This document shows, piece by piece, positions 1,199 through 60,850 of a DNA stretch of 64,000 nt (within the stretch, counting starts at the first letter, position 1; every line of letters starts with the position of its first letter). The notes beneath the pieces are model-generated. The model worked only from the letters and a program-made list of their open reading frames with translations, was not told where the DNA came from and ran no database searches. The DNA is from Moniliella sp. 'wahieum' (lineage: Eukaryota), in assembly GCA_003971905.1 (NCBI GenBank), contig RSEE01000012.1:496001-560000 (forward strand), given 5' to 3'. The translations under genes and the position numbers were made by a program.

Positions 1199-2406
1199 GA
1201 TGCCGACAGAAGTGCCCCCGATCTCATGGTGAATCAGACAGTTGACAGCAAAAATGGGAAGGCGATTAGAGGAGAGTGAAGGCCTCAAAAGAGGAGCTTT
1301 TTTCGTAGGGTTTCGTTATAGTGGTGAGAGAAGGCGGAAAGATGTTGCGGATGGGGTAAGAAGGATGGTTCGGCCCCGGCGGTTTCCATTTATACACTCC
1401 AATGATTTGTATACAAGAGAGAGAATATTGACTAACCATATCAGTCCATATGATTGGAACTGTCGAGCCTAATGTATGCGGCCATATCCTTGGCAGTCAT
1501 TTGCGGGTCTCTATAGGTTCTATTAGTCACTCACTAGGTCAGGAACAGCCTCGTCACAAACAGCAGTGTTTTGGGTGGGGAGATGCAAGCTGCACCAGAC
1601 CGCAACACTGCGGCAACTGTGCTGCACCCCGGAAAATCATACGGAGCCCCACTATGCTCCGGGTTGGAGACCCAATCCCATCTTCGCCTCTGTCTCCATG
1701 TGTATGTGCCACATGCTGCACTGTACCTGTGTCCCGGTTCCAACACACAGTGGGTTGCATCAGTCTTGTCTCGCTCCACGAGCTCACTATTGTAACTCCC
1801 GCGAGCTACTCTTGTACCCCCCTCCAGCAACCAGCAACGGCTCTTCGGCAGCCTTCTGCAGCACATTGCAAGGTGCGGGGAGCTGCATTATGGTGCCACC
1901 CCCCCGAAAAGGTCTTCGGTTGACGAGTCAATATTCAATGAACTAAATTGGTGCTCCCCAGGCCTGCTGCTGCATATATATAGGCGCATAGCCCTGCTAC
2001 ACGTCCCGCGGCAGTCGCACCGCCCTACTTTGCACACAGCTCGCATCGGGTCAGTGGCCTTATGCGGCCCTTTCATTGAGCGTCTCACTCATACCGTCGG
2101 CGCCGTAGCAATTTAATGATCACCGACCCATGGGGGCAGTTTAGCCTCTGTCTATATTCCCGTCTCCTCAATAAAAGTACGGAAAACATCCGAAGACCGC
2201 GGTCACCTGGTCTCAGATCTCACAACTCTTCGGAACTCTGCGCCTAAGCCGACCCGTTTACCCGGCATGTGTTGTTTGTTAGGGCCAACAACCCCGTTTA
2301 GGGAACAGGGGGAGAATCCAGGAGATCAGGACCCTCTGGTGCCCGTCATTCGTTCCCATATCCGAGGTTGCGTAAAAAACAGAAAAATTGTGTGTCGCTT
2401 TGTACG

Positions 2407-2459
2407 TCACGCGTCACATGTCACGCGTCATATAACGGCTCGTAACGCGTAAGGCCTAA
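2407..2459. repeat. 7-bp-phased TNA/4-bp-palindrome array
   Basis: TCA CGCG TCA CATG TCA CGCG TCA (2407-2430) and TAA CGCG TAA GGCC TAA (2443-2459). Confidence 0.9.
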
Positions 2460-2511
2460 GGCTGTCAAATGTCACGTGGCATGTCTTTTCACTGCACGCA
2501 GTCCAGCAACA

Positions 2512-2646
2512 TCTCGGTGATATGATTCCGCTTCTCCAGCGAGAGGAATGGTGGAAGGTGGAACGGGGGCTACGGTGGCGACGATGTAACGGTGGCTTCA
2601 GTGGCGAGCGAGCAGACCGCGGTCCGTAGGCCCGGTGGTCCCCTCG
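2512..2646 (+). mobile_element. Non-autonomous mini-Helitron-like element, copy 1 (~135 bp)
   Basis: A|TC 5' end, subterminal hairpin GGTCC-GTA-GGCCC, ends GTGGTCCC CTCG|T. Homologous to 39543-39673. Confidence 0.7.
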
Positions 2647-5600
2647 TGCGTATAATAGTAGTAGAGGGCTTTCTCATCGATCATCATAAGAACGACTTCC
2701 ATCAGTACATCATCACTGATGCAATGGGTTAGTAGTTTTTCATTTAGACTTCCTGCTTAATATAGTTGTCAAGTAGTAGCCAGTCTTCCTGACTTATTAA
2801 ACCCTCCTTGTACAGACCAGCTTGGGGCGATCTCCTGAGGCCCAAGGAGAAAGTGTGAGCCATCTCGTATGTGCGGCGGAACGGCTCATCCAAGCATGCA
2901 CTCACACAGGGATAATGTTCTTGGAGACCAACACAGATATTTTACTATATTACTAGATGTATTACTAGTAGATGAGGGACATAGTGAAATCGATCCGTGG
3001 AGGAATACCTGTGGTCTTGTATACACCACAGTTCAAAAACAGAGTCCTGGCGTGTCAACCGGTAAAACCGGCCATTGGCCAAAAAGGATATAATCGATCA
3101 CAGAATGTCACACGTCACATGTGTCACATGTCACAGCCGGCCAGATCTCAGAAGCCAGTCACTCTAGTCACTTCTTCCGAGGTCACACTGACCTTTTTAT
3201 TCTGACCACATGGAACACTTACCCTGCCTTTATCTCAACCCTCTTTTGTTTTGACCTATAGTAGTACCGCCACTCCAGGCTACTCTCCCCTTCTTTTTCT
3301 TCGATTCAGAGCCATTTGCCGTCCACCTAACAGCTAGCACCTGTCTTTCTTCTACCCATTGTGCGACACTGTACTTGGGACTTCGTTGGAGAACCACACG
3401 ACCATTATTCCGTCCATCACCACACCTTCGGAGTTGCTGAATTCATATACTTAGTAGCATTTGCACAATTTTCGACAGGAATAAACAGAAACGCCGCAGG
3501 CGTACTCATTCGACGTGCGCGGTTATGCTTGTGCCGACCCCATCCGGAAGCCGATGGCGTCGCCAGGAGACGTCTCAATACCCATTGGGGATCCCGCAAT
3601 TCGATTCTAAACCGGAGGTAGCATGAGGGTGCATATCATCGTTGCTGATGTATGGAAATGTTAGCACGAAAAATACACTCTGTTTGACAAAATTAGAGCT
3701 TTGAGTCCCTGCCACCTTTTGCTTTCTGTAGAACATCAGTGCATCAGAGAGTAGGTAGTTTTGATGGTGCATTGCATTGAACATGAACTACAGAGGCTGG
3801 AGATATTCCCGCCCTCCATACGACGGAATATTGTGCACGGAATGAACGAAGAATCCGGGCTTGTGGGCTACCGGCGCCAACACCAGTGTGGCGTCACACT
3901 TTCGCGAGAGATCATATCCTGCATTCTACCCTCCATTGCATCTACTGTATAGGGTTAAGAAAAAACCCCGCCAATATGACGAACAACCTCTCGACCAAGT
4001 ATATACACTAATGTATACTAATGAGACCATCACAGATTCAGGAGACTGCGAACTTCGATAAAGGGCCCCTTTGGTCAGTTCGTACAACTCTGTGCAGTGG
4101 GGACCGGTACAAGCATATATGCTCCTTCACCTGCTCCCCTAAACTATTCCCCGCTTTCAATTCAGTCAGTATATCCTATGGAGCTGTTGGGTATTTGCAA
4201 AGGATGCCTGCGTGGGCTGACCCTTGTGGTCTCGTTACTCCTTCTTCACGGCAAGGTTTATCTCATACAGTTGGCTGATTCATAATTGTCCAAAAACACC
4301 CTCTCCGTCTGTTCTTTTCTCTCTATACTACTACTCCATCCCACAGTATGTCTTGTCACTCGATGTCTCCTTATCGACCTTATCGACCTTTATCAATTTT
4401 CTGTATTGCTCATCCACATATACAACCACGAGATAGGCCAAGGGCTGTGACCCACAAAGGCCAATAATTAAAAGCTGAGGAGAGTGTCCATTAGGGCCGC
4501 TCTGAGAGATATATGAGACCAAATCTTACCATTATTTTCACGTTTGTGATATATATGACAGCAAGGATAGCTAGCTGCGAGCCATCAGCGCGTGCGCGTG
4601 CGCAACCTTTTCTTCGTTCTCTCGTTCCAAAATGACGCACATGCCGTCTCCCTTTCTCGCGACCACATTTCCCCTTTCCATGCCTTTTTTATACTCGACT
4701 TTTGATACTTGAATCAATACATACTCACTGTGGTTATAATGGTAATTGATCCTACTAGAGACAAGATGTCTCATGATCGTGTCCTTGTGTCGCTTCATTG
4801 AAGCTTCACCGGTCACCACAGTAGCGTCCGCGTCACCTGCCATAACACTGAGCAAAAATAACGTTAGGTCAATCTCAGTATCTGTTCCCTTTTTTGGCCT
4901 CTGAAACGAATGTCCTGCCTCCTTCTCCTCATTTGCCAGGAATTATGCCAGCTCGAAAGGACGAGCTCGGCCCACGCGGCTATCGCTGACGCGCGTTTGA
5001 GAGTCAGTTCCTCTTCAAAAACACAACACATTTTTTAGGCTATATATAGGTGGTCAAAAGAAAAAAGGCGCCTTATTTATCGGGTCTTCTTCCTGTTTCC
5101 CATCACAGGTCCCAACGTGAGACCTGTTGGCTTTCCTTCTCTCTCTCGAGGGCTCAGTCTCAGTCTCTGTGAGGATGTATAACGGGGAGCATGACGAAAG
5201 GCATTATTGTAACCCGCCATCGCTCTTCCCCCGTCGGCTGTGAGCCTCAGCTACTAAGTATATAGCTCAACAGTGGAAGACGAGAGTGGTGTGATGGTGT
5301 GCGCCCAGGCCCAGAGCTCAATGTCAATGTGCAAACTGTAATACATGCAGCTGTGTCATTGCTGCTCGGTCGCTTGATAGCACAGAGCACGGATGCTTGC
5401 GCAGGACCGAGCGACACTGCTGCCTCCGGCATGGCCGCAGTGGTAGGGGGGGTAAAGCTTAAAGATGCGAGAGGTCAGATTCAAGATCCAAGACAGGCGT
5501 AGGCCTCGGAAAACCCGTTTTTGAAATATTGGAACCGCGTATCCACCACTGGCCATGGGGCAGGTGGATGTGGCACAGGGCGCTGATGATCTAAGTATGC

Positions 5601-9335: not shown

Positions 9336-9510
9336 TGAGATCTGAGATCAGCGCAGCGGCAATTATTAAATGTGCCGCTGTCCGATCCACTCAGTAGTCA
9401 TGGTCATGCGTCACACCGCCACGCCGTCACATGCATATCAACGGGTGTCAACATGTCAATGTCAATGTCACCTCAGGTGACCGGTGACCGGTGACGACCG
9501 GTGACCGACC
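9336..9510. repeat. TNA/palindrome heptad arrays in a divergent promoter
   Basis: TGA GATC TGA GATC (9336-9349) and TGA CCGG TGA CCGG TGA (9478-9494); TGA TGCA TGA also occurs near 9773-9806. Confidence 0.85.
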
Positions 9511-10085
9511 CACGGCCAACAATTTGATCATTCTGGCTTGTTGGAAGGCTACCAAGTACTAACGCTTAAATGATGTTGTGCTTACGGCGCTGAGGTGCTT
9601 GCGTATGCCGGCGCTACCATCCTATGGAACTGAGTTCGGAGTGACATTGAGGAGCATGTGCGAGGGATCCGAATCGGGTCTGGAAGCCGCGGGGGCTGGA
9701 CGGTGCTGTGTGCGCTGGAAGCTACTCATCACAACTAAGCTGAGGGCGCTGAGCTGAGGCACAGATGTTGCATGATGCATGATGTATGCACCTGATGCAT
9801 GATGCAGGCTGCAGGCTGTGCTCTGCTGTGCTGCATGCTGCGATGCGATGCGATGCGATGCGAGAGGATGCGATTCGCCCATGCAAGTTCCCAATGATAT
9901 CACCCATCATGCAGACCGTCGACCATCGGCCATCGGATGGAGATATGAGTCTGACGCGATGACGTAGCCCCGCTGCCTGCGCTTTGCCTGCCTGTCGATG
10001 TCTGGACCTCCCTGCGCTGTTGCTCTCTGGCCCACCGCCACCACCGTCTCCCTCTTGCTCGCATCCTCCTCGCCCTCTATCCGCC

Positions 10086-15100: not shown

Positions 15101-15722
15101 GGTGGTGGGGGAGGTGGCAGGGGCGATGGGACGGCGAGAGAGATGGCGAGAGAGACGCGAGAGAGACGCGATGGGTGGAGAGAGGAGAGGCGATGAGAAG
15201 ACGGCGGGGAAGGCGAGAGCCAAGCGCTGGAGAGGGGCCGAGGGGCAGCAGAGGGGCAGCGAGAGCGGGGACCAGTGGGGTGTACGGGGAAAAGTCACAG
15301 CGTTGGTCCGATTGTGCTGCGCATCACCCGGCAGACCAGGCGGGCACCTGAGCCTGATGGCCCTGGCATGGCTGCCGATGGCAGTGGCACCCGCAGCAGG
15401 GGGCCAGCGCCCGCGCTGCAGGAGCCACACGCTGCCACACCCCGCCCACACCGGCGCTGTGCCGCACCCAACCCGACAGCCGTCTGCGTCATCCATGCTG
15501 CGCGTCATGCACCAGGCGCCAGGCCTCAGGGCGCAGCCTGAGCGCTGAGGCTCAGCGCATCGGCGCATCAGCACTGGCCCAGTGGCACAGGCAGCGACGG
15601 GGAGACATGGGGGCACACTGCGCAGCTGCCCGCCGGCAGGCAGGCCGGACGAGATAGCAGGGCGCCCGACGGCCAGTCAGGCCTCAGGCGGGTGGCTGAG
15701 TATTGAAAGCAGCCACCGAGAC

Positions 15723-16430
15723 TCAGTACTCAGGATCGGTATTGACGAGGACTGAGTCTCAGTACTGAGTGTGAGACTCCCAGTACTCACTACCAGTTCG
15801 AATGGGCAGCAGAAGGCGGCAATGCTGCGTGGGGGTGCCCTGTGTCCGTGTGTGGCCAGCAGCAGCCTTACAGCTGGCGCTCACATGCCCCACCAGGCCC
15901 CAGGCCACCCCCCCAGGTGTCCCATAGCATCCGAGCATCATGCATCATGCATGCATCATGCATCGTGCATCACCCTTACCGAGCTGTTGGGGCGCCCTGT
16001 GCCCTCCGACTAGCCACTGCCCTCTCCTCCCTTTGAGATCTGAGATCCTGAGATAGGACCAGCGACTATTTCATGTCTGGCCAACTTTATGCTAGCGCAG
16101 CCAACAACTCCGTTTCCTCGTTGGGTCAGCTGACCGGTCTTGGGCACCGTCGAGCGCTGAGCTCAGCCGCGGAGCTAAAATTGGCTGATTCAAGATAGTC
16201 GGCCGTCACGCGTCACGCATCACGAATCACGCATCGCATCTCACATCGTAGACATCCTGCTTCCTGAGCCTGACGTCGTTTGTGCCTCCTTGCTCTGGAG
16301 CCCTCGACAATGAGCTCATCGATCACTGGTCAGGCTGAGGCTCACTGGTCAGACATGTGCTTACGTGACCGCTCAGGCTGAGCGCTGAGTCTCAGCGCTG
16401 GCTTGAGTTTGAGTACCTCAGTACACTGAC
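15723..16430. repeat. Cluster of TNA/palindrome heptad arrays upstream of the PH-domain gene
   Basis: TCA GTAC TCA (15723), TCA TGCA TCA TGCA (~15938), TGA GATC TGA (16034), TCA CGCG TCA CGCA TCA CGAA TCA (16206-16229), TGA GCGC TGA (16379). Confidence 0.85.
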
Positions 16431-17099
16431 TCCCGCTTCCAACACCCCCGCTCGAGATCATGTGGCCATTTCTTCCCTCCCCGCCTGAAAGAATGGGGGT
16501 TAGGACGAAGCAACTACACTGGGAAAGCAACGGGTGAGCCGATGAATCGGTCACACCAACATGAGCCCAGAACCGCGGTTGTCCGTTGCATGTTCATGTT
16601 ATTACGCGTTAACTGTGAGAAGTAGCTACACTACCTCAACTTAGGCGGATTGCAGGGCGGAGAAACAGTCAGAGATAGATTCTTGTAAACTCCTGACACT
16701 AGTCTGGCCTTGCATGCAAGAGGTAAAAGAGGAACGAGAGGAACGAGGTGCGGCGGGAACCAATCCGGAGCGCGCCTGTCGCGAAACTCTGTAGCCAGTT
16801 CCGGTTGCCAGTGACATGGACATGGCCAACCAAGCCATCACACGCCAAGTGGTGTCATATGTTGGCACCTTGGGGCATCGCATCGCCCCAACAGCACCAC
16901 ACTCCAACACCACCAAGCTATTTTGCATCAGCAATTCCACATGTTGCGTTTGACTGCTGGGCCCCTGGCGTCTGGCATGAGCCTCATCGGGGCCTCAGGC
17001 TAAGCGCTAAGCTAAGCGCTGAGGGCGTCTGAGGCCTGAGGTGCTGAGGCCCTGAAGACTGAGCCTCAGTAACCGGCCCTACTACCCCTCAGCAATCGC

Positions 17100-17713: not shown

Positions 17714-18120
17714 GGCGATCCCCTGGTTCCTTTTAACTCATTGGTGGCGCTACCAAGTAACTCCGGCAAGATGAACGGTTCAGTTTAGACGCAGCGTTTC
17801 CCTGTCCCAGCCTTAAGCTCTGTCAATGATATGGATGCAGTATAGTGGTAGCGAGAATACGATCTCGACGTGTTGTATTTTATTGACCGTGGTGACGAAG
17901 TGTGCCGGCTCCCTAGCTCCTCTGGGCTCCCAGGTGGAACCTTAATCGTACAGGCCCCTGCAACCTGAGGACCGAGAACCGGCCTCGCGCCGGTTTCCCT
18001 CTCGCTTGTTCTTCGCCGGGAAAACAGGAGGAACCCAAGGAATTGGATGGAGAAAACCCGTGGGGGAGAAGTACTAAGAGTAATAGAGACCGATGAGATC
18101 GAGATAGTCGTGATTTTGTA
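17714..18120 (-). mobile_element. Probable LTR 3' part plus internal leader of an LTR retrotransposon (remnant)
   Basis: Minus strand reads AATAAA...ATCCATATCATTGACA (LTR-like CA end at 17821) then GAGCTTAAGGCTGGGACAGG. Segment 17714-17836 matches 29161-29283. The upstream boundary is uncertain. Confidence 0.5.
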
Positions 18121-23652: not shown

Positions 23653-24299
23653 GGTGGAGGCAGAGCACGAGAACAGATGAAGGGCGGAGGGTGCGGACCG
23701 AGCTCGAAAGCGAACCGGGTAGAGTCTGCTGACATAAGCCTGTTACCCCACCCGCCTGCAGCAGGCAGCAGGCAGCAGCCCCAGGCAGCGCCCCATGCTG
23801 CATGCGCGCGCCCCCCGCAGGCACCAGGCGGCAGGCCTGTCCAAATGGCCGAGGCCGCACCAGGGCAGTGCGCCGCCCCCAGGCGTTTCGGTGATTGATG
23901 ATGCATGATACCGGCGATCGGCACAACCACCCACTGCCGCCTGGCGTTCGTCCCGGGTACCAGCGAAGGGCCAGTGTGGCCAGCATAGCTCATCCATGCA
24001 GCCTGCCTCCCGCTCCTCTCGCCAGTGCGCGTTCCGTTTGCATGGTACAGCGTGTGGTCTAACGTTGGGCGTCTACGATCGATGATCTGGCCTGCGTCAC
24101 GCGTCACGCATCGCACATCACGCATCACGCATCATGCGCCGGTCGCTGGTTGGACAGTGCGTCACATGACACCACCCCACTCGCCAATGCATAATGAACA
24201 GCTCGCGGTCCTGTACCATCGATCGAGCCATGGCGGGTATCGTACGTCGAGTGGTAGCGCCAATACTCCAGCCCATGTGCGTCGTCCACCAAATCATAC

Positions 24300-25934
24300 A
24301 GCATGCATGCATCCGGCCTCGCTTTCGCGTCGCGCGCCTTGGACGCGGCCGTGTCGACGCGGACATACTCGGCCTCTTCCCTGCCCTTGGGATCCTCCGA
24401 CGCGGGCAGGACCGACGAGTAGACGTCGCCCAGGATGCCCAGCGCTTGCGCCCGCAGGCGCTGCGTTTCTTTGCTGGCCGTCTCGTCGTACAATACCTTC
24501 TCTGCCACATCGCGAATCACACTCTCCACCTCCCACTTGGCCCCCTTGAACATTGCCCTGGTCAGCTTGGCCGCGGCCTCTTGCTCCAGCTCTTGCTTGC
24601 GCGCCTCCGTAATGCCTTCCGCCTCTGCTTTGCTGATTTCCTCGTACACCCGCTTAGGTCAAGTGCTGCCCGCACCGCCGACATTGTCTCCCGCAGCGTG
24701 TGCACCCCACTCGACGCCCCATGCAGCATCCCGCCCAGGGCACCCCACATGCCTACACTGGCAAGGTAGTGCTTGGACTTGGCCGTGTACTGCCCCCCGA
24801 CTGCATGAAGCAGCTCACACCAAAGCTGTACAACAAAGGAACCAATCAGTACAGTTCACAACGTGGAGAGACAAGGTACCCACTTTTCGTCCCGTAGAAG
24901 GAGTGCCTTCTCCGTTTCAATCTTCTCAAAGCTCTCCGAGATGGCCCGCTGGTGGGAAGGATCATCAGAGGTCCTCATGGCCTCGGTGTATACATTGAGC
25001 TTGGAGATAAGGGTGTCCGCCAACTCGGCACCCTTGCCTTGCGAGCAGCCGCGCGGGCATCAGCCGTCTTGCGTTCCCGCTCCTCCTTGGCGGCCTTGAC
25101 AGCCGCTCGGCCTCCTTGCGCGCAAGGTCCTTGTCCTTCCCGTCTGCTTCGCCTTGGCTTGAGCCTCAGCAATCGCCTCATTGGATTCGGCTTCCATCTC
25201 CTCGTTCTGCATCGCGTCCTTCATATCGGCCACGATTGAGAGGGTACCAATGATGTCCTTGAATCGTTCGCCGCCAAACAACTGCCCAAAGACCTCCTCT
25301 GGGTCGACGGTAGCAGCGCCCTCCCCGTCGCATCCTCCCCCACTTGAGACATGCCAAACTCATTGTAGCGCGTACGCAGCTCCGGGTCCTTGAGCACATG
25401 GTACGCAGTAGCAAGTGCTTTAAACTTCTCGGCCGCTTGAGCGTCCCTGGGTTCTTGTCCGGGTGGAGTTGGATGGCCCGCTTGCGGTACGCACGTTTGA
25501 TTTCATGCGGTAGCAGAAGCTTTGATACCCAAAGCATCGTAGTAGGTCATGTCTAGCGGCGACTCGTCCGTCCCGATCCGCCGGGTCCGCTTGCCGGAAG
25601 ATTGCTGTCCACTCGACCCGGCTCCCGGTTTGCCCGCGGAAGCGCGTGCCTCGCGCACCCGCGCCACCGCCCCCGGCGGCTCAAACTTGGTCCCACACGA
25701 ACAACACTGCACTTGGAACGATCCTTGCATCGGGCCCACGTGGGCCTGCAACGCCGCTGCGCTGGCCGCGCATATTCCACCGACGCCTTGCACGTCTTGA
25801 CGGGACAGGGACCCGCACCCACTCCACATCCGCCGGGCGGCTCGGCACAGTCCAGTTTGCCATTCGCAGACGAGTAGCTGTACCCCGCTGCGGGTGTGTG
25901 GGCATTCAGCACCGGGCGTACACCCGCTACTCAT
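24300..25934 (-). CDS. Djp1/Caj1-like DnaJ protein (J domain + DnaJ-X domain); 3' end approximate
   Basis: MTYYDALGI, EIKRAYRKRAIQLHPDKNP (HPD motif), FGGERFKDIIG, AMFKGAKWEVESVIRDVAEKVL...RLRAQALGILG. Confidence 0.9.
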
Positions 25935-28226: not shown

Positions 28227-29160
28227 GGGAAGGGAGGCACGGGTGGTGGTGGGTGGGTGGGGAGAGGAGGAGGGGGGACGGGGAGGGGGACGGGGATGTG
28301 GGGGTGGGTCGGCGGGTACAAGGTGCGTGGCTGGGTGCACTGCTGTGGCCGGGAGCTGGGCGAGGGGCTGGCGCTGATCGCTGATCTGCTGGATTCCAGC
28401 GGCGGGACCGCGGGGGAAACAGGGAGGCTAAGTCCGCCTGGGACGGGGCAGTGTGCATCTCCGCCCACGGCGCCTGCGGGGTGTCGCGCCTCAGGAGCGC
28501 CCGAGTGAAGCATGAAGCTGCTAGTGACAGTGACTAGTGACTGCTCCTGAAACCAGGCACTCGTGGCTGCTGGAGGCGTGCGGGCGCTGCTTTGTCCGTC
28601 CTGGTCGGCGGGAACCAATTACCCGCACAATGTGACTCTCCCTGCGGCTCCGGCTTGTCCCGGCTTCGCAGCTGGCCTGCGGCGTCCTGGCCTCTCCCCG
28701 CCTGGCCCTCCTGGCGCCGGGCTGTCCGGTTGGCGCAGACCATGTGCCATGGCCGCCGAAGCGCCCGAAGCTCAGCGGCTCAGCTCAGCGCGCTCAGCGT
28801 TATTGAGGCTCAACACGCTCAGCTCTCCGTACCCAGCGCTGTGCACCGCTCTGCGCCACGGTAAAATGTTCAGACACGTTGGCACCAAACCACACGCCGG
28901 CAGTCACCTGCTGCGGCCTGCCTACTCCCCTGCACCATGCGGTTTCAATTCCAAACATTCATTCAGCGATAATCGGAGGCATGGCAGGCACAGCAGCGCA
29001 CAGCTGCAACCCTCAGCGTCTCAATCCTCTGGGGCCCCGCATTGCTGAGCTCAGCTGAACTGCTCCATTCATATCACGATCACTAGATCCCTATCTAGCT
29101 TCCCTCCTCGTTGATCAGCCCGAGGGCTCCCAGCAGCGACACTTGCCCGCTCCTTTTCGA

Positions 29161-31330
29161 ATCCATATCATTGACAGAGCTTAAGGCTGGGACAGGGGGA
29201 ACGCTACGTCTAAACCGAACCGTTCATCTTGCGGGGGTTACTTGGAAGCGCCACTAAGGTCAAGAGGGACCAGGGGGATTGCCAGGTGTAAGCCAGGCTA
29301 AACGAAGTTCCAGCTATGATGCATGGTGTTCTCCACTGTCAATCAAAACATGCTTGAGACTTGAAGATTGACGCTAGCTTGACGCCGCAACCGACCCAAT
29401 GCCTAACAGGCCTAACGCCTAACGCCGCCTTAAAGCCTCAAACAACGCCAAACGCCTAGTGCACATACCATGTTTGACACTGTCGAGATGACATATCCAC
29501 ACCCTGTCCCATCCATACCATTGCTACCACCCCCAATTACGACCCGGCGGTTGATTGGACGCCAGCTTGCCAACCCGCCTTCGACGACCTCAAGAGCACC
29601 TTCCCTTCTCCCCATGATGTCTCATTTGCCTCTTTGATCCCGGTCGGGCGCTCCGCATCGAGGCGGACGCATCCCCCATGCCGCCTTTAGTCGGGTACAC
29701 AGTGCTGTGGCCATGCAGGACGACAGAACCTGCCGTACTGGTTGCTCGCAATGCTCTGCTCCCGAAATCGCTTATTGTTGTCCCGCCGCCCCGACATCTC
29801 CTCCGGCTCTCACCCTGTCGACGCTGCCTGCCAAACGTTGTTGGATCCTGTGTCCGAGCTTTGGTACTCGTGCTCCAGCTCACGTCCATACAGTCAGGCC
29901 GATCCGTGGATGGGATGGTGGCGCTTTTGTCGGCCGACAGCGCATTCGCGACTTGAGTCCCGAGACCCCCGTTGGACAGTGTCGCGACATCCCCACGACC
30001 TCCTCTCCATGCTCGGCTGTCCTTTCCCACCGGCACTTGACTCGGCGCAGGCAGAAAATGAAGGGCGTGACAAAAGGCTCGGCTACGTGCCCGGTCGCGA
30101 TATTGGTGGCGCCGCCTGCCGCGGTCAATGTGTGGGCATTTGAGCGCTCTTGCAACCGTTGTCGGCCGACCAAAATGCTGAGGCGTTTCTCTCGCCGGAT
30201 TACTACAACCCCTGGCCTCACCCTCAAGGCCTGTGGACTCACTTGGCGATTGGCCGCTTCACCCCGCTGCCATCATCGAGAGGGTGCGATGTGGCCCTGG
30301 TCGTGGCGGACGGGTTCACCAAGATGACGCATTTTATCCCTGCTCTCACTGCCGCGGCTTTTGCTCGCGGCTATGTTTACCACGTCACCCGCTACCATGG
30401 CCTGCCGCACGACGTGGTGTGCGACCGTGATCCCACCTTCACGATCACTTTTTGAGGGTGGGGGGGGGGGCAGTGCAGTGACTTGGGCATCCACTCGAAC
30501 TTCAGTACCGTGCGTGTATCACCATCAATCGGCCGGAACCAGTCCGAGTTTCACCAGCTTTTCCAGTAGTACCTCTGTTTTGCTACCTGGATGAGCGGTA
30601 GTCGAGCTGGACTGCTCTTCTCCACATGGCTGAGTTGGTATAACTCTTCCCCCCACTTCATACAGGACAGGTGCATCCCCCTTTTTCCATACACATGATA
30701 ATATGGTTTTACTCTCCCCCCGGGAGTTAGCGGCAACCTCTTCGGTCGTGCCCGGCACCGCCTTGTATCCCGATGGTTTCCGTTCGGCCCAGACCTAATT
30801 CAGAAGACGTTGTCGCAGCCCATGAACGGTATCTCGGTACTACGCTGATCGGCATCGCACCGATGTCACCTCCTTTGAAGTCAGGCAACCGTTCTTGTTC
30901 CGTCGCCATGACTATACTTTTATCCCCCGACCGCCCTTCCGACGGAGTGGACTGTCGCTACGTGTGACCCTTTCCAAACGTCTGTGTTGCCGGACGTGCT
31001 GCGTACTAACTTCACGTGCCCGATGGGCTCCATATCCACGATGTCTTCCATCTCTCCTCCCGTTTGCGCGCCCACACTCCAGGCGATGAGGTCTCTAACC
31101 GCTTGATCAAGCTCCCTGCCTCCCTCCTTGAGTATACCGACGATGAGGCGATTCACCATGAGGTCCAGGAAGTCCTTGGCTCCCACCGTAAAGGCTGAGG
31201 CGGGAGTTTTGAGTATTGTGTCCGTTTCAGGACGTACCCTGTCCACGAGCGGGGGTGGGTGCCACAACTGCAGACATGTCCCAGAATGCATAACTCCGTC
31301 CAGTCGTCTGTTTCTATGCGACGTAGCCCG
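29161..31330 (+). mobile_element. Decayed Ty3/gypsy chromovirus remnant (LTR end/leader, RNase H, integrase, chromodomain)
   Basis: FDPGRALRIEADAS (RNase H); LPSSRGCDVALVVADGFTKMTHFIP...HGLPHDVVCDRDPTF, YHHQSAG, W..LLHMAEL..NSS..GASPF (integrase); LHIHDVFHLS and EVQEVLGSHR..EYCVRF..Y (chromodomain). Many stops, frameshifts and deletions. Confidence 0.9.
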
Positions 31331-34700: not shown

Positions 34701-34703
34701 TAA

Positions 34704-37590: not shown

Positions 37591-37720
37591 AGGATGGAGG
37601 ATGGAGGATGGAGGATGGAGGATGGAGGATGGAGGATGGAGGATGGAGGATGGAGGATGGAGGATGGAGGATGGAGGATGGAGGATGGAGGATGGAGGAT
37701 GGAGGGAGGATGGAGGATGC
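37591..37720. repeat. (GGAGGAT)n heptanucleotide tandem repeat, ~16 perfect copies plus degenerate tail
   Basis: Read directly from the sequence. Confidence 0.98.
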
Positions 37721-38086
37721 AGGATCGGTGGATGTAGACTCTGTATCTGTCGCATTGAAACGTGGGGACTAATCGGCTAATCGATCGCTAATCATTAAAA
37801 GCGTCAAGTGATTAATGATGATCGATCGAATGGATCGCCGCGCTCTGCTCTGCAGCGCTGCAGCGCCAATGCCCCCGGGTACCCTGGAGTACCAAGCAAA
37901 GCTTAACCATGGATGATCGATGACGCACACCGTGGCAAGTGAAGCACGAGGGCGCTGTTGCACCGCAGCTGGCCGGTGGGGGGTCACGCCTCACGCGTCA
38001 CACCTTCACCTTCTCCGATCCGACCACACTACCTCGCCGCAGCTCACCAAGCCGTCGCTCCCACCATCCCCTCGCCTTCCCACAGC

Positions 38087-39160: not shown

Positions 39161-39542
39161 ACTATTGAGCGCTAGGGGCTGACCCTGGCTGACCCCACTT
39201 TGCTCTTGCTTGCTCTTGGACTCTTTCGGCTACACGCTCCTTTTTTGGCCCCACCCAGCTCTCCCTACTTACTTTACTCATTTGGCACCCTTTCTTCCTC
39301 GTTCTGCACTTTGGTCCTTGTCTCTGCTCGCCTTGCTGTCCCCTCAATCCCTGCCATCACATTCCCTTCCTGCAATCTACAGTCATGCAAGTCATGCGAC
39401 TCTTGGTGTCTGCCCAATCTCTACTTCAATAAAAAATGAGAAATACTGCTACTCCTTTTGCGTGCAACCTTCACGTACGTATCGAGCCAGGCCTGCCAGT
39501 CCCGCCAGTCAGCCCCGCCAGCCAGCCCCGCCAGCCAGCGTA

Positions 39543-41485: not shown

Positions 41486-41610
41486 AAGCTTGAAGCTTGA
41501 AGCTTGATTCCGCCAATCCAACCCTACCACAGTTCTGAGGCCGCGATGAGATCACAGAGATGCCTCCGCTGTCACATGTGATGTTGATTGTCACACGTCA
41601 CATGTCACGG
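41486..41610. repeat. TNA/palindrome heptad arrays ~100-230 bp upstream of the ATG at 41382
   Basis: A AGCT TGA AGCT TGA AGCT TGA (41486-41507); TCA CATG TGA; TCA CACG TCA CATG TCA (41591-41607). Confidence 0.9.
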
Positions 41611-42303
41611 CCCTCCTAGCTAACTTAATCAGGTAACTCTTCTCTGCGCCGGTCCTGTTCCCTTCCCTCTACCAGTACATCTTTTGCTTCCCTTTTTGGT
41701 ACTTGGCTCTCTCAGATCTCACCGGGCATTTTCACTGGTTCCCAACGGAGAGCCTGATCAGTACCACCAGACCAACCTCATGCCCACCCCGGCCAAGACA
41801 CGCCTGCCCAGCAATTTGGGGGCCACACGCCCATGGGCGCCTTTACCCCCTGCCGTATAGCCAAGGGTGCGATCCCCTCTCTATCGGACGCCGCCTCCTT
41901 CGAGCATATTGTCAGTAAGTTGGCTACGTTCCAGGCGGACCGGGCTCGTGCCGCCGCGCCCCGGTGTGAGGGCCAGATTCCCTACTCGGTTTGATACTCT
42001 CTGTGCTTTTGATGATGCCAAACAGGATAGAGACAGCTATAAACTCTGCCCTGACCAAGTCCAATGAAACGAAGATATAGGCAGCTCCGCATGTGAAGGG
42101 ACGAAAAGCGAACGAGACACTAACGATGCAGAGATTGAGATTGCAGGATGAGCAAGAACATTAGAGAGAAACCTCGAGTTGTTCAGGCAAGACAAAAGGA
42201 GACGAGGGCATGGGGTGGGGGGGCAGGAAGACCCGGAGGCCAACCAGGGGGACACGCGAGGGTATAGGCCAGCCTCTCCTTTCGTGTGTGAAGAGCAAAG
42301 AGT

Positions 42304-44010: not shown

Positions 44011-44580
44011 TCATGCATCACATGTATCATGCGTCACGTGTCACGTGCCCCTGTCACTAGTGAAACGGTGGCCGCAAACCGGGACCCAGCGCAGCACCAT
44101 CGTGCCCGTCCGGCCCATCGTCCGGCTGCCCCCGTGCCCATCGCGGCCACCAGCGGGTGGGCCACCCAGGAAAAACACTGTTTGCGAACACACCCATCGC
44201 CGCCTACCAGCCCTGCCCCATCATGTGCATCATGCATGCATGCTATTGCCAGCCGCTTGCATTGGGTCAGTATAAGCAAGGACTCAGCGCGTACTCAGCA
44301 AAAGCTTTCTCTTACAGCTCGACCGCGGCTTTCACCATCTGGAGGAGCTTCAATTAAAGCCTGAAGCTTGAGGCTCGAGGAGCTTAACGCGTAACGCGTG
44401 ACGCGTGATGCGCGTTTCAACACGACTGGGTCCGCCAACCGGTAACTCCAAAGAGCGCAGTATCTGGGCCCTACCAGGCCCCACCACAGCGGTCACTCTA
44501 ACCCTAGCTGTGAATGGCCACTCTACCCACACCCACTCATAGCGTGTGACATGTGACATGTGACATATGACAGTCACATG
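44011..44580. repeat. Cluster of TNA/palindrome heptad arrays upstream of the PHO13-like gene
   Basis: TCA TGCA TCA CATG (44011); TCA CTAG TGA (44054); AGCT TAA CGCG TAA CGCG TGA CGCG TGA (44381-44408); TGA CATG TGA CATG TGA CATA TGA (44547-44570). Confidence 0.9.
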
Positions 44581-44759
44581 CGACACGTGGCCGATGCGTT
44601 GATCTGTTGATCATGTTGATTGCAAGTGGCATAGCAGCGTACAGCCTGGTATTCGCCATGGCACCCATCCTGCATCCTGCCCATCCCTGTTTTCCTCTCT
44701 GGGCGCGCAATCCCGGTAAGATCTGAGATACAGAAGCGAATTATGTGCTGGGGTTCCAC

Positions 44760-47912: not shown

Positions 47913-49329
47913 TGTTTCCAGGCCAAGGCAGGTGCTTGGATATGCATCGCTGGTTTCAGGGGTCTGGCCTGCTTGTTGTGCTATACGGGGATCATCGATC
48001 AGGGCCGAGTGGCCCACAGCGGGTGGAGGGGGGGGGCAGAGCCAGAGCCGCAGTGCCGGCGCCAGCAGAGCCTAGGCTCAGTGCGGCCAGGGCCGCCTAC
48101 TGCTATCGATCATCGATTATGCCCCCCTAGTGCCCCCGCCCACACCTTGGCAGTCCCGCCAGGTCCCGCCCACAGCGCCAGTGTCCCACACCGGTTCCCC
48201 ACATTTCGCGGTGCTGGGCTGCCCCGGCTCCATTGGCACCACACGCTCCACCCCGGCCTCCCTGCTTTCTGCTGCGTCGTTGGCCTCTCAGATCGCAGTT
48301 TCTCAGTACTCAGTGAGTACTCAGTTGCTGATCTCGCTCCCCCCACCCCTCACCGTCACGTGACCAGCCACTGAGCATCACTGGCTCGGCTTTTTGCTGT
48401 CTGCTCTGGCATCATGCATCACCTGCTCCACCGTCTATCTGCTGCACAGTTAGATGCATAGCATAGCTAGTTGATGAAGTTGACCGCGGGATCTGAGATC
48501 ATCGATCAGAGTGGATCAAGAATTTACATCATGTCCACTGATGCCACGTTCTCGGCCCCTCCATGACGCAGGCGATAGAGCTATCGGGATGGTAAGCCGT
48601 CGCACAGCTTTTGACCAAGCAAGAGTGCCATGGGGGGGGAGTCCTGAGGTGGGACCCACCCCTGTAGTTGAGGGATACAAACCCTTTTGGACGGGGCCAA
48701 TTGGAGCCACGTATGGTATGTCCGGCCTCAGGTCCTGGTCGAACCGAGCGGAGTGTATAGAGGCGAGGGAGAGACCATCTAGTTTGGGCGGCTTTGCCTG
48801 TGTACAAAAAGGAGCTCAGGCCCCTAGCATTAGGTAGAGCAGCATACGTAGGCTGTCCCCGTTGAAGGGGTCCAGGTAGTCCGGGGAAATGTAGGTCCCT
48901 TGATCGTTACCACAGTCGCTGCCTGTAATAGACTGAGTCTTCCTGACGAAGAGCAAGCGCTACTGAGAGTAACCGCGGCTTGCAGTGTAATCGAGACGTG
49001 AGTGGTAAATTTGTAAGGGTGGTAGAAGGTGGAGGGGAGAGAGAGAGGAATGGAAAGTTTGGATCAAGGACGGGTGGAAAAAGTGGATGGCATTTTCCTA
49101 ACACCGAGCCGCCTAAAGGGACAGCACTACATACGGAGGTGAAGTAAGACGTAGGATTGTGCGACATGGGGAGTACCGCAGCTCCCGGGGGCGTAGAGGA
49201 GGTGAGAGGGGACTCTTTAATGGTACAGAGCACCAGCGTAACCGGAACAATATCGACCGGGTCATGTTCCCCTGCTCCCTCGTCTCCGCGCCCCATGCTT
49301 GAGAGTCCTGGCATTCTAGTTATACGGAG

Positions 49330-51157: not shown

Positions 51158-53555
<2,398 letters not shown>

Positions 53556-55551: not shown

Positions 55552-55602
55552 TCACATGTCACACGCCATCAAGCACATTGAAGCTTGAAGCTTGAAGCTC
55601 GA
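55552..55602. repeat. TNA/palindrome heptad arrays
   Basis: TCA CATG TCA (55552) and TGA AGCT TGA AGCT TGA AGCT CGA (55579-55602). Confidence 0.9.
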
Positions 55603-55880
55603 AGATCCCTATCAAGCTTTAAATTTAAGGCCTCCAAGATCGACATGATCGACATGATCACGGCCTCATTCACATGGCCTCCTCTACTTCTCTTGACAAG
55701 GAGCCCCTCTAAGAAGGAGCAATAAGACATGTGCAAAGCCTAATTGCATCACAAGAGTATAGGGCCTTCTGCAGGGGCCACAGCTCAGGAAAATGGTGCA
55801 CAACTGTACACTTGTCAGTTCACATGTGGTAATGTGTGTTGATATTGTTAATTTCCAAAGCTATTATGGGCCGCAAAAGG

Positions 55881-56663
55881 TTACATGGTCCCAGACAGAA
55901 CCATCCACACAGAGAATTGATCATCGAGACGTGGCATATAGCGCGGAGCAAAAAGAGAACGAGTGACAAGAAGGCCCGCTAGTAAAATTAAGCGCACATC
56001 ATGCACATCAGAGCGCAAAAAGGGCCGAGAAACGAGCAAAAGATGGGATTGGTTCCTTCTCTGGAAAAAGATCGACATGCAGAGTTTGAGGAGAGGAATC
56101 CAGGCGGGTGGTGCAAAACGAAGGACAGATACACGAAGGAGAGGTAACAAGGGGTCGGGCCAGAAAGGAGGGTATGCTGCTATAGAGGGCATGATTAAGA
56201 AAGAGCCTTGGGGTTGGTGTCTACCCCTACTGTTGGGCAGAGTCTTTGAGGGCTTGATGAAACTCGCGCTGTTGGGCGATCAGCTGAACTAAGGTCAGCT
56301 CTATACGCTGACAGTAAACGGAGAGACGGGAGACGTACCGTGGCATAGTTGATGATGCGCTCCTCCGACCGTCCGCGGGTCAAGGGTGGCTCGGGAGGAA
56401 GTTTCAGCACCTCCTCCCACGAAATGGGGGGGGGCGTCAAAGGCGACCTCGGCTTTGTTCAGGCCAAGGTCGTAGGCAGAGTCGCGCATGTCATACTGCC
56501 ATCGGAAGAGCGAGCGAAGCCTGGCGGGGCCCTTGGGACTCCAATCGTACGTGGGCTGGGCGAGGTTGAGGGCGTCACCGGGGTTGGGGACGTTGACCAG
56601 CATGCCGCGCGACGAGGCCATTGCGCCGGTAAGGGCGGAGAGCAGGAGCAGTGGCAGGCGCAT
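55881..56663 (-). CDS. Hypothetical protein with N-terminal signal peptide (3' end uncertain)
   Basis: MRLPLLLLSALTGAMA-SS signal-peptide pattern after a C/T-rich leader; GTACGT donor near 56338. Confidence 0.55.
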
Positions 56664-57018
56664 TCTTGGGGGGTTGGTAGGGGACGGTCGAGAGACGGAA
56701 ACGAAGGACGGTGGACGGGAGGCAAAGAGAGAACGGGCGAGGGAGAAGGCAGGGAGAGCGAGCGGCAACGGTGGTTAGGGGTGGGGGCGTGAAGCTGTAC
56801 ACAGTATACGGGTGAACTGGGGAGGGGCCGAGTGCTGCGAGGAGCTACCATATGCGCTGGCTATAACGATTCCGCAACGCTGCCCCACCTTGGTGCCTGG
56901 ATACTGGATGCATGTGGGCGGGTCAACTGGCGGGGGACGTGACAAAGAGAGCTGATGCTCAGCGCGGCCCAGCCTCAGTGCTGCCGCGCTTGCGCTCGCT
57001 CAGTACCTAGCGATGGGT

Positions 57019-57690
57019 TTGAAGCTTAACGCTTCCCGTGACCGCGTGACCGGTGACCCCCAGGATGCTTAGTGCGCAGTCTGAGATCTGAGACTCAGAT
57101 CCCAGATTTGAGAAGGCCGCGCTGCTGCTGTCCAACGCCCCCAGCCGCAAGCGAGCCCTTGAAACCGAAGATCCCTATATGGGACGGACGCCCGGACGAT
57201 CGGCGGCTGGGCAGAGTGTGAGACGAAGCACCCGAAGGCGTGTAGGATCTGGGATCTCGGATCTAGACCACCGGCTTTTTGCCAAGCTGAGCTACATGGG
57301 ATCGGCGGTCGATGTGCCGATGGAAGCGATGGACGGTACGTAGGTACCGGCTGCTTCCAACAGAGCCGTGGCATCGGTAACGCATAACGCGTGTGATTGT
57401 AACGTTGAACTGCAACTTTCAACGTTCAACGTATTCCACCCAACACCAACCATGCAACGCAACGCGTCACGCTTTGCCGCTGGAGTGTGAACACCCGGGT
57501 CTTTAATATTCACCCTCGATCTTCCTCAACGCGATCACCCACCGCTCGCTCCCCACGCAATCGCAATCATTAATATTGCATGCATTAATCACCACCCAAA
57601 TCTCACGTGTCACATGTCACAGGTCAAGTCGGCCACCTGGTGCCCCAATGGGCGGCGTGAGGCGTGAGGCCAGGCGTGAGGCGTCGCGCC
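57019..57690. repeat. Cluster of TNA/palindrome heptad arrays in a divergent promoter
   Basis: TGA AGCT TAA, TGA CCGG TGA (57047), TGA GATC TGA (57082), TCA ACGT TCA ACGT (57419-57432), TCA CGTG TCA CATG TCA CAGG TCA (57603-57626). Confidence 0.9.
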
Positions 57691-58007
57691 ACGCCTGCTG
57701 GATGTGGCAGGCATCCTACCAGTGGCTGCGTCGGCGCCCCCCCGGCCAATCTGAATCAGCAATCAACGTAATCATTAATCAACATGCAATCAGCCCAAGA
57801 CACATTCGGTGGCGTCGGCGCCAGAGACTGTCAGCGCGGGGGCAGTGTCGCGGCGTGCAGGCTTCGTACATGGCACACTGCTTGCGCACACTAGCACTGC
57901 CCTGGCGGCTGTGCTGCGCGCGGCAAGCGGCAAATTGGCGTGTTGCGTTGCCACTGCGTTGCAATTTCAGGCCACCACCTCCGGCAGCGCCGGCCGCTCA
58001 GCCCGCC

Positions 58008-60245
58008 ATGGCATCTCCCACGCCTGGACCCGGGCCTGGGTCCATCCTGCTCCCTCTCTCGCCGCCCCCACGCCACCCCGAGCACGAGTACTTCCCTCCC
58101 CCTCCCCCCCCCAAGGAGCCCCGCGTGCGCTCGCCTGCCCCGCTGCCCAACCGCCTCAGTGCCACCTACAGCCACCACCCACGCCTCCCGCGCCTCCGTC
58201 CTCACCACCGCCAGCGGCAGCGGCAGCGGCAGCACATCTACCGAATGGGAGGAGCACGCCGGGCGCGTCGAGATGCGGGGGCGCACGATTCAAGTGGTCG
58301 CGGATGCGTATGCCCGCGCAGGCACCGTTAGCCACCTCCTCATCCCGCGCACCGCTTCCCAAGTCGGGGCCTTCCTCGCCTCGATCCCGCTCCAGGCGCT
58401 GGAGGAGATGGATGTGTCGTACTGCCAGCTGAGCTCCTTCCCCTTCTCTTTCAGCACCAATTTGCGCGTGCTCAATGTCGAAGGAAACCCCTTAGGCGAC
58501 CCTCCGGCATGTCTGGCTGATCTCACCGCACTCACCACCCTGGTGTGGAGCAAGACTGGTGCACAGCACGTGCCCGACCTATCGCCGTTACGTGAACTCA
58601 CTACGCTTGCTCTTGCGGGCAACCAGCTGATTGAGCCCCCGAGGTGGATCCATCGTCTCCCGCGCCTCAATCACCTTCAGCTCGAGGACAACCCATTGAT
58701 CGATCCTTGGCGCGAACTCCTCTTCCCCTCCGCTTTTCAGTCTTCCCGTTCCTCCCGTCCCTCAGCTGGTGTCTCCACCTCTCCAGCTTCACCCCGCCCT
58801 TGGAGTCCACGCCTCTCCCACAGCCCCCGTCTTTCAGGCTTACCAATACGCACCTTTCCCCTCGACTGGACCGGTACAGGCTCTCCCGATCGCTCGCGCA
58901 GGCGATGGACTAAGTTCATGCGTCCCTCTTTCTCGGGTGAGGGAGAGATGTTGTCCGCACCTCATTCCCCACATTTGGAAGAGCCGCGACCGACGTTGGA
59001 TGTGAGTGGGCTGGATTCGGCATTGGAGATCCTTTCCAACGAGGAGGTGCCGCTGGCGGTGCTGCGCCAATATCTGCAGGACTTGGATGAACTCTGCTCC
59101 CCCCTCCCCCCCGGGCCTACCAGAGTTGAGACCGGTGTCCCCATGACGGGCTTAGGGCCGGCTATGGCGTCCCAATCTGCCGCGGGAGGGCGAGTGGAAG
59201 AGATACAGAGAACGGCTACGGATAACCCTTCTCGTCGCCAACAAATTCTCGCCGAGCTGCTTGACTCGGAGGAGCGGTACGTGCAAGGGCTGACAACGCT
59301 TGTTGACGTCTACATTTCTTCCCTCCGCGGCATCATTCCTCCCTCGCATGACCGTATTGTGTTCAGCAACGTCGAGTCGCTGTTGGCCTTCCATCGGGTC
59401 TTTCTCCCTTCTCTCCGCATCGCCAAGGATGGGGAAGGAGTGGGACGGGTATTTGTCGAGCACATGGCGTTCTTACGCCTGTATATCTACATCTACATTC
59501 TACGCGTCCCGAAGCAGCAGTTGTGCTGGAACAGTGGAACAAACCGCTCAAGAGGAAGAGTCTGCCTCGGGAGGAGAAAAAATCAGATTTGCCCTCAACG
59601 CAAAGGAAAGCGATCCAGCTGGCGCTCCGGCGTGCTGATGAGGACCCACGCACTTCCTCCCTTGGGTTGGGCAGCTACCTCTTACTTCCCGTTCAGAGGA
59701 TACCTCGCTACCGTCTTTTCCTCGAGGATTTGGTCCGATCTTCTGCCCCCGGCGCGTCCGGCGCGGGGGCGAGGCGCTTACCCAGCTTCTCCAGATGGCG
59801 GGGGGCATCAACGAGGCCCAAAAACGGGCCGAGATGGAGAGACAGCTGCACGCATGGGGGGACAAGCTGAGTGGATTGACATTGAACGTGCCCCACCGTC
59901 GGCTGTTGCGGGACGGGCAGTTGTGCCTGCAACACATCGTGCGTTTGGGCCAGTTTTATCTTACGCAGCAAAGTGAACTGGGCAAGGTGGATGTCCTGGA
60001 CGTGGAACGACCGGGGACGACAGTCACACTGCTCCTGTGCAGCGATACCATCGTTCTTGTCCTACCGCTGGGCGGGGGGGAAGACGCTTACTGCACAGCT
60101 GGATCTCTGTGACGCCAAGCTGGAGCGCGACACCCTCCGTCTCAGGGGCGAGAAAGCCATCTACTACCTTTCAGCGTCGTCCGAGGCCCTGGCAGAGGAG
60201 TGGGCGCGCGAAGTCCAAGATGCTTATTGGGCGTGGAGGGGGTGA
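58008..60245 (+). CDS. LRR + RhoGEF (DH) + PH domain protein
   Basis: LRRs LEEMDVSYCQL, LRVLNVEGNPL, LTTLALAGNQL, LNHLQLEDNPL; DH RQQILAELLDSEERYVQGL...VFSNVESLLAFH and YLLLPVQRIPRYRLFLEDL; PH RRLLRDGQL...LLLCSD...AEEWAREV. Confidence 0.9.
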
Positions 60246-60796
60246 GGGCGCGAGGGGTGTTATATACCATGTCTTGTACTTCTAGACGTCTGTGTGTATA
60301 TGCAGTGCATTGTATGCCTTGACAGAAACGTCAGGCAGCCTCAGAGCTTCCTTCGTGGAACCGCATAAACGACATGGACTGACTGTCCCTCCTCCCAAAT
60401 TCACATCGAACCGCCCGGCCAGACCAGCGTAGCTCGCACTTACGGCGGGTCTATGACAGAATCATCGGGGGAACCGGAGAGGCGCTGGGGTGCGGAGGAG
60501 TTGAGGCACTCGTCGGCCGTGAGGTTGAAGTGATCGCGGGGGCCGTACAGTACAAGTGAGCCTCACTTGCTTGAACGCGGAGTGGCGACCGGTATCAATA
60601 TCGTGCATCATACATCACGTGGCCACTGGACAGGCGACGGGGGATCGAGTGATCGCCTCCATGCTAAAAGCCACTAGTCTGCCAAAAGACGCAGCGGGCC
60701 AGTTTCTTCAGGAAGCCTGTCACACTGCCCCCACGTGGCGGACTAGTATATGTGCACTAGCAAGCGATCAAGAAGAGATCAATATTCAATGGTGGA

Positions 60797-60850
60797 TGAT
60801 CGATGATTGATGATTGATGACGCGGATGATGCATGATGCATGATGCATGA
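60797..60850. repeat. TNA/palindrome heptad array upstream of the LtrA-family gene
   Basis: TGA TCGA TGA TTGA TGA TTGA TGA CGCG GA TGA TGCA TGA TGCA TGA TGCA TGA. Confidence 0.9.

Follow-up and report, generated by a model that had tools for sequence, protein, structure and literature searches.

What generates the seven-base rhythm of T-N-A triplets that recurs in the intergenic DNA of Moniliella sp. 'wahieum'? The question is raised by a stretch of 64,000 nucleotides (GenBank assembly GCA_003971905.1, contig RSEE01000012.1, positions 496,001 to 560,000 of the forward strand), called the window here, with positions counted from its first letter, in which pairs of TNA triplets are often separated by four self-complementary bases (TNA-xyy'x'-TNA, referred to below as scars). 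Across the whole window the four-base spacer is palindromic in 83 of 190 TNA-N4-TNA sites (43.7%), and 15 of the 16 palindromic 4-mers are found between TNA pairs, only TATA being missing. A first-pass annotation of this DNA had reported 13 such spacers, to which ATAT and AATT are now added, and all the motifs that it had placed are present at their positions, namely 2407-2459, 9336, 9478, 15723, 15938, 17001, 28531, 34194, 37809, 41491, 48303, 55579, 57419 and 60827. The excess over 1/16 and over Markov expectation that it had anticipated was borne out: 60 simulations per order yielded on average 7.5, 6.4 and 11.9 palindromic spacers for orders 1, 3 and 5 (that is, 6-12) and never more than 19, and in control DNA the palindromic share was 6.0% (133/2211), the chance value. 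The controls were 80 loci totalling 754,625 bases around Sec23 relatives, drawn from metagenome contigs, mostly of other fungi plus further eukaryotes; in the nearest metagenome loci Sec23 is only 78% identical.

The palindrome enrichment is limited to a spacer of four. TNA pairs were palindromic in 29/101 cases at spacer 2 (chance 25%), 4/126 at spacer 6 and 2/114 at spacer 8, so that the other spacer lengths, which the annotation had proposed as a check, show no comparable excess. TNA-TNA at spacer 0 was not enriched either (111 versus about 110 at other spacers), and general palindrome enrichment was absent from the window, bar odd palindromes centred on TnA and a few long ones. The sites fall into 70 chains, 60 with a single spacer and 10 with several, at a density of roughly one scar per kb; the earlier description of them as "arrays" is thus too broad. 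Among short tandem repeats period 7 leads, with 44 full-unit duplications against 3.5 expected and 8.1 per 64 kb in the controls.

The flanking triplets are as restricted as the spacer length. When all triplet pairs around 4-nt palindromes were compared, only TGA/TGA (32 versus 2.9 expected), TCA/TCA (28 versus 3.0) and TAA/TAA (5 versus 0.2) stood out, and a CAT/CAT signal was a by-product of TCATGCA arrays. Palindromic spacers between non-TNA triplets were at chance level (98/1851). Sorted by the first base b, counts of bNA-palindrome-TNA were 132 for T, 15 for C, 8 for G and 3 for A, indicating that T and A are both required, and C-N-G, G-N-C and A-N-T flanks showed no enrichment around palindromes. 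The middle base is identical in both triplets at 66 of the 83 palindromic sites, and the 38 reconstructed targets comprise 36 TGA/TCA and 2 TAA/TTA, versus a background of 1511 and 551.

Around the sites with the same middle base, runs of matching letters at distance 7 had lengths of 3 to 9 in 4, 3, 20, 12, 7, 4 and 3 cases, respectively, and 7 runs were longer. The modal run is 5, which makes the unit object a 12-mer of 1.7 units with the form TNAxy-y'x'-TNAxy or its mirror y'x'TNA-xy-y'x'TNA. Its palindrome is usually foretold by its surroundings. With U and D standing for the 2 nt just outside the TNA pair on the upstream and downstream side, 58 of the 83 spacers equal either the reverse complement of U followed by U, or D followed by the reverse complement of D; 2000 flank permutations gave a mean of 10.8 and a maximum of 22 such spacers, and 30 of the 133 in the controls are explained by a flank. 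The 60 single scars divide into 18 of upstream type, 17 of downstream type, 10 of both and 15 of neither. In multi-spacer chains the fit is to the upstream flank for the left palindromes and to the downstream flank for those on the right, the opposite order being seen in no chain of the window. The chain at 2443-2459 reads CG-TAA-CGCG-TAA-GGCC-TAA-GG, where the left palindrome fits the upstream CG and the right one the downstream GG. Complementary middle bases (TNA-palindrome-TN'A) occur at 6 of the 83 sites, and 4 of these 6 are flank-explained.

Non-palindromic sites carry traces of the same structure. Of 107 such TNA-N4-TNA cases, 59 are one pair off a palindrome, and those with the same middle base that lie within clusters are mostly a single substitution away, many by a change of CpG to TpG or CpA, which argues that these near-palindromes are ageing, decaying copies. 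CGCG cores decay through CGCA, CACG, TGCG and CGTG to CATG and TGCA (e.g. 16206-16235, 24097-24134 and 44027-44050), a series of letters that suggests that CpG transitions are frequent in this intergenic DNA.

The scars are probably footprints left on excision by a cut-and-paste transposon, or by a family of such elements, with a 7-bp target duplication and with flank hairpins opened about 2 nt off the tip. From the footprints we infer that a transposon, a hairpin intermediate and a nuclease took part. The element would insert at ab-TNA-fg (nnTNAnn, mostly T-G/C-A) and duplicate all seven bases. On excision the transposase would seal each flank as a fully paired covalent hairpin exactly at the flank end, and a host nuclease of the Pso2/Artemis type would nick each hairpin about 2 nt 3' of the tip, turning the last two flank bases and their reverse complement into a 4-nt self-complementary 3' overhang. 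The left end would then be ...abTNA plus the overhang fgg'f', and the right end the overhang b'a'ab plus TNAfg.... During end joining one strand would be ligated, usually with one overhang kept, the other trimmed to duplex and the gap filled, to give abTNA-fgg'f'-TNAfg or abTNA-b'a'ab-TNAfg with a spacing of 7; repeat visits to either new TNA site would build chains and arrays. Period 7 would not depend on the opening distance. Openings at +2 and +3 would give the same product because T and A are complementary, an opening at +4 or beyond would give TNA-palindrome-TN'A with complementary middle bases, and the palindrome would be four bases long because +2 is the main Artemis opening site. A mutational footprint, by fold-back repair or by 7-bp duplication at palindromic nnTNAnn targets, had been one of two explanations offered in the first-pass annotation. 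Duplication at nnTNAnn and fold-back bases are both retained here, acting together; transposon excision and opening at +2 had not been named, and pre-existing palindromic targets are unneeded, repair itself creating the palindrome.

Such a mechanism predicts side products, and these predictions were written down before testing. Two 4-nt palindromes are held by 3 of the 114 TNA-N8-TNA sites, the class in which both overhangs would be kept, and all three have the predicted crossed order, with the first palindrome derived from downstream and the second from upstream. Two of them are degenerate and lie in TGCA arrays. The non-degenerate one at 44282-44299 is the clearest scar of the window, AC-TCA-[GCGC][GTAC]-TCA-GC, in which GCGC comes from the downstream GC and GTAC from the upstream AC; the chance expectation of a full crossed match of this kind is about 0.002 per window. 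Here both hairpins of one 7-bp duplicated target would have opened 2 nt off the tip, with both overhangs kept.

Were one hairpin opened at the tip and the other at +2, again with both kept, two intact 7-mers separated by 2 reverse-copied bases should result. Doubled nnTNAnn 7-mers of this form are found at 3157, 4369, 39381, 44219 and 55644, with a degenerate form at 28783. At 3157-3172 TCA occupies positions 3-5 of the 7-mer and the 2-base filler is reverse-complementary to the two bases that begin the right copy (class 0,2); at 39381-39396 a TCA-centred 7-mer is followed by the reverse complement of the left copy's last two bases (class 2,0); at 44219-44234, also TCA-centred, the 2 filler bases are reverse-copied from the right copy. 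The repeat at 4369-4390 is TTA-centred and is read by TRF as period 9 with 2.4 copies, and the one at 55644 is a 9-bp-period repeat of a TGA-centred 7-mer plus 2 reverse-copied bases. Other fillers also occur: AC-TCA-GT is present twice with 4 reverse-copied bases between (48303-48325, 7-mer at 48308), overlapping TCA-GTAC-TCA and TGA-GTAC-TCA, and a single reverse-copied base is found at 57037 and 28770.

Window hits in the classes (0,2), (2,0), (2,2) and (0,0) numbered 3, 4, 3 and 23, and the control hits, in twelve times as much DNA (755 kb), 5, 4, 0 and 10. An unbiased scan for D7-P2-D7 returned 9 and 8 observed versus 0.4 and 0.4 expected. The intact doubled 7-mers establish that the duplication is 7 bp, that TNA lies at positions 3-5 and that the hairpin axis falls exactly at the flank end. 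Both features of a P-nucleotide footprint, namely two direct copies of the target duplication and junction bases reverse-complementary to the end of the neighbouring flank, are present. The 7-bp duplication, the flank-templated palindromes and several of the predicted product classes can be read directly in the DNA.

Excision of this kind has precedents. The enzymes of hAT, Transib, RAG and MULE systems make hairpins at the flanks, and the joining of these leaves footprints (PMC5499845). In a yeast assay of Ac excision, deletion of pso2 lowered reversion about 100-fold, and its authors read this as Pso2 repairing hairpins in >95% of revertants (PMC3299998). For Artemis, +2 is the main opening site and 4-nt inverted-repeat overhangs are dominant (PMC2175297). 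The Ac/Ds elements of the hAT superfamily, studied in plants, S. cerevisiae and C. albicans, resemble the present scars in keeping two duplication copies, in flank-templated P nucleotides and in variable opening that yields a family of products (PMC5873905, PMC3299998), and their hairpins are opened by Pso2 in yeast (PMC3299998). In C. albicans, yeast and plants the P nucleotides of Ds footprints have the complement of the neighbouring base at their centre (PMC5873905). Ac/Ds thus differ from the scars in their 8-bp duplication and odd axis, as opposed to 7 bp and an even axis at the flank end, and they are known from individual loci and assays, whereas the scars form a layer of about one per kb. 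At 39381 and 44282 the last flank base is kept and its complement comes next, and the duplication is 7 bp, which does not correspond to the Ac type.

The coding joints of V(D)J recombination (RAG, Artemis) are alike in that a fully paired hairpin is sealed at the exact end and opened mainly at +2, which leaves 4 self-complementary nt as a 3' overhang; as a rule, P nucleotides are retained on one side (PMC2175297). They differ in having no target duplication, in being specific to vertebrate lymphocytes and in using signal sequences; the 7-bp duplication in the scars implies that, unlike in V(D)J recombination, an insertion came first. Basidiomycete transposons with 7-bp duplications have been described (PMC12730594), namely hAT7 in rusts (Pucciniales) and Kyakuja (KDZ group) in Agaricomycotina. 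They share this duplication length with the scars and belong to the same phylum; hAT7, however, belongs with Ac and Tam3, and these products would not arise from the odd-axis hairpin of that group. No transposase of the hAT7 or Kyakuja type was matched among the window's open reading frames. PIF/Harbinger elements (Tourist, mPing) also have a T-N-A-like trinucleotide at the insertion site but a 3-bp duplication and precise excision through staggered cleavage of the duplication (PMC4561436). In the scars the two bases on each side of TNA are duplicated too, and spacer 0 is not enriched. Galileo and 1360 of the P superfamily in Drosophila have 7-bp duplications, but they are animal elements. Their target is a palindromic consensus with a central N, and cleavage of the P type leaves element-derived ends, not flank-templated palindromes. 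The mechanism proposed here is of a known kind; as far as the open-access literature searched shows, its target, its 7-bp duplication with an even hairpin axis and above all its density are new, and no earlier description of a genome-wide TNA / 7-bp / palindrome pattern was found in the open-access library searched.

Several observations weigh against transposon excision. No candidate element was recovered when 7-mer pairs 40-6000 bp apart that enclose inverted termini were sought in the window, and a transposase domain was found in none of its 218 open reading frames of at least 110 aa; a general inverted-repeat scan of the window gave motif-to-motif matches only. Seventy chains in 64 kb is a very high density, and the fungal group is usually transposon-poor. 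Twenty-five of the 83 spacers are not explained by a flank; chance would account for roughly 6-12 of the unexplained spacers, and several others appear to be one CpG transition away, as at 41598, where the spacer CATG lies between flanks CG and CG. The palindrome axis falls exactly at the flank end, versus an axis on the complement of the neighbouring base in hAT footprints of the Ac type (PMC5873905), and the best-studied fungal-compatible superfamily (hAT, Ac-type) is therefore a misfit as it stands. Odd palindromes of the form TGAG-N-CTCA with arms of up to 8 nt (15531, 16371 and 57074) are not yielded by the simple model. Their composite form is xyy'x'TGAG-N-CTCAxyy'x', i.e. TGA-core-TGAG-N-CTCA-core, with a free centre base in the last 17 nt. 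At 15531-15558 TGA-GCGC-TGA is followed by the 17-nt odd palindrome GCGCTGAG-N-CTCAGCGC, which is only partly explained, and the same architecture recurs at 16371-16398 with a GCGC core and at 57074-57101 with a GATC core. TGA-GNC-TCA is frequent and is the commonest spacer-3 form. As a guess, the odd palindromes may be long hairpin tracts that have lost their tip base.

The same empty-handed search for an element or transposase in the window speaks for a host process, in which a host or domesticated nuclease cuts the open DNA of promoters at TNA, leaving a 7-nt stagger and hairpin ends that are then repaired, no mobile element being involved. The very high scar density and the clustering of scars in intergenic DNA upstream of genes agree with this as well. 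We nevertheless regard it as unlikely: to duplicate a full 7-mer, two staggered ends must be separated and filled in, and it is normally an element that keeps such ends apart, because complementary 7-nt overhangs would presumably re-anneal. We know of no host nuclease of this kind.

Replication template switching, i.e. fold-back copying at a stalled fork that inserts 7 bases at TNAxy with no double-strand break, has its hallmark in reverse-complement copies of adjacent bases, and the 12-mer can indeed be written as TNAxy, the reverse complement of Axy, and NAxy. The process leaves the strict T-N-A rule unexplained, C-N-G, G-N-C and A-N-T being not enriched, would presumably require a zero-loop fold-back with no priming homology, and predicts neither the crossed double palindrome at 44282 nor intact 7-mers with exactly 1, 2 or 4 reverse-copied bases; its chance of being right appears small.

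Slippage-prone heptanucleotide microsatellites, whose near-self-complementary units would form hairpins and expand preferentially, could account for the dominance of period 7 among short tandem repeats and for some arrays of 3-4 units, and an unrelated AGGATGG array has 21. Most objects, however, have 1.7 units, and only 7 of 53 runs reach 10, below the start of slippage; the modal run of 5 is too short to have arisen or grown by slippage, and on this point the explanation fails. Neighbouring units may also differ in their palindromes, each fitting a flank, and neither the T-N-A rule nor the side products of 9- and 11-bp period are predicted. At least two full units, with a unit unlinked to the flanks, mark a microsatellite or minisatellite, and the scars do not have this form, although a minority of true arrays exists. 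Slippage is accordingly very doubtful as their source.

Highly improbable is a cis-regulatory or chromatin element selected for dyad symmetry and 7-bp phase, the symmetry- or shape-read element offered as the other explanation in the first-pass annotation: most sites do lie upstream of genes, and some scar units coincide with ACGCGT and CACGTG, which are factor-site hexamers in other fungi, but 15 of 16 palindromes occur, the neighbouring dinucleotide dictates them in 58 of 83 cases within a 12-mer of fixed mutational anatomy, many copies are decaying by single substitutions (59/107 one pair off), the 80 control loci lack the feature, and in place of the conserved core of a transcription-factor site there are 15 different cores with only T-N-A constant. 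The symmetry is produced by repair, not read by a factor.

Variants of the cut-and-join scheme were also tried and rejected. A 5-bp duplication (TNAxy) with 2 P nucleotides fails in that the mirror form TNAxy-N'A-TNAxy is absent, TNA-N2-TNA is not enriched and intact 7-mers are duplicated. Footprints containing element termini, in the style of Tc1/mariner or CACTA, do not fit a palindrome that covaries with the flank. Odd-axis hairpins like those of Ac, followed through by hand for duplications of 7 and 8 bp, lead either to period 6 or to filler bases in the wrong order.

It is a long shot that a hairpin-forming transposase, mobile or domesticated, is active enough in the open DNA of promoters of this lineage to have written a measurable part of their sequence. 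Since every scar creates a perfect A-NNNN-T hexamer palindrome, such activity would keep producing dyad-symmetric factor sites (e.g. ACGCGT or ACATGT) beside TGA/TCA and would be a mutational engine for regulatory evolution. In the boldest form of this idea a host nuclease makes programmed breaks at TNA, with no mobile element. Should the pattern be genome-wide, it would be a fossil record of tens of thousands of excisions (a figure extrapolated from about one per kb, not counted), natural data on fungal hairpin opening and joining with a spectrum of +0, +1, +2 and +4, and a measure of how much non-coding and heptamer "microsatellite" DNA comes from transposon traffic rather than slippage. It would also amount to a blind prediction of the element: a 7-bp duplication, nnT(G/C)Ann as the target, and cuts placed precisely where element and flank meet. 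For motif finders the caution is that a phased, dyad-symmetric promoter "grammar" can be purely mutational.

The remaining catalogued sites, to which like those above no strand is assigned, show the range of forms. Two chains occupy 2405-2459, TCA-CGCG-TCA-CATG-TCA-CGCG-TCA followed by the chain at 2443-2459 described above. A perfect 7-bp array of three TGA-CCGG units lies at 9476-9495; (ATGTCA)x3 at 9453-9470 and (TGCGA)x7 at 9839-9874 were noted in the same intergenic region as these heptamer scars. The TAA/TGA cluster at 17001-17063 contains GCGC and GGCC palindromes, each fitting a flank. At 44385-44412 a threefold TAA/TGA-CGCG chain has the flank TG, one CpG transition from the expected CG, and the TGACATG unit array at 44545-44589 decays to CATA and CATGC variants. 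The region 55578-55659 holds a TGA-AGCT array and the chain TCA-AGCT-TTA-AATT-TAA, as well as the 9-bp-period repeat at 55644, and 57037-57101 holds the CG-TGA-CC repeat with its one reverse-copied base (57037), TGA-CCGG-TGA and the GATC composite. A dense run at 60779-60884, upstream of the LtrA-like gene, is made up of TCA-ATAT-TCA, TGA-TCGA-TGA, a (GATGATT)n array, TGA-TGCA x3 and ATGGATG units.

Open reading frames of the window encode Sec23/24, mitochondrial carrier, RhoGEF-LRR, DnaJ, Svf1, KARI, Yop1-type and other domains, and introns interrupt several of the genes. The C-terminal Sec23 fragment has 97% identity to one assembled protein, 82% to Violaceomyces and about 80% to Tilletia, Ustilago, Ceraceosorus and Malassezia, which places the source among the Ustilaginomycotina, the basidiomycete group of smuts and related yeasts. 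Gene context was taken from Pfam hits alone, since crude gene calling by third-position G+C (GC3) was too weak and was discarded. None of the 83 palindromic sites lies inside Pfam-supported coding frames (14,004 bases). Scar clusters are intergenic; most lie 5' of genes to which Pfam hits give an orientation, among them the DUF3605, HAD, DUF1764, RhoGEF, LtrA-like, Svf1, DnaJ and carrier genes. The window gave no match in Rfam and none in a tRNA scan.

Other features of the window were recorded alongside. Just upstream of the DUF3605 gene, (AGGATGG)n is present in 21 copies (37591-37734); having neither TNA nor dyad symmetry, it is a true minisatellite, distinct from the scars. The open frame with the DnaJ C-terminal domain (24128-24658, minus strand) takes its stop codon from the TCA of a (TCACGCA)n scar array at 24097-24134, which provides TGA in all three frames on the minus strand. 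On both sides of the HAD-hydrolase gene region (41585-41726 and 44546-44728) a TCACATG-type array is followed 125-165 nt on by TCTCAGATCTCA-CCGGG in one or the other orientation; the elements are individually inverted, yet they come in the same order on both sides, a resemblance that may reflect common scars reused by chance. Two inverted copies of a conserved non-coding element, about 115 nt long, lie 11.3 kb apart, at 17718-17836 (+) and 29161-29270 (-), with arms 89-100% complementary; both copies end in ...CAATGATATGGAT, and the element matched no Rfam family and no tRNA. Duplications of period 6 and period 9 also exceed Markov expectation, partly inside coding repeats.

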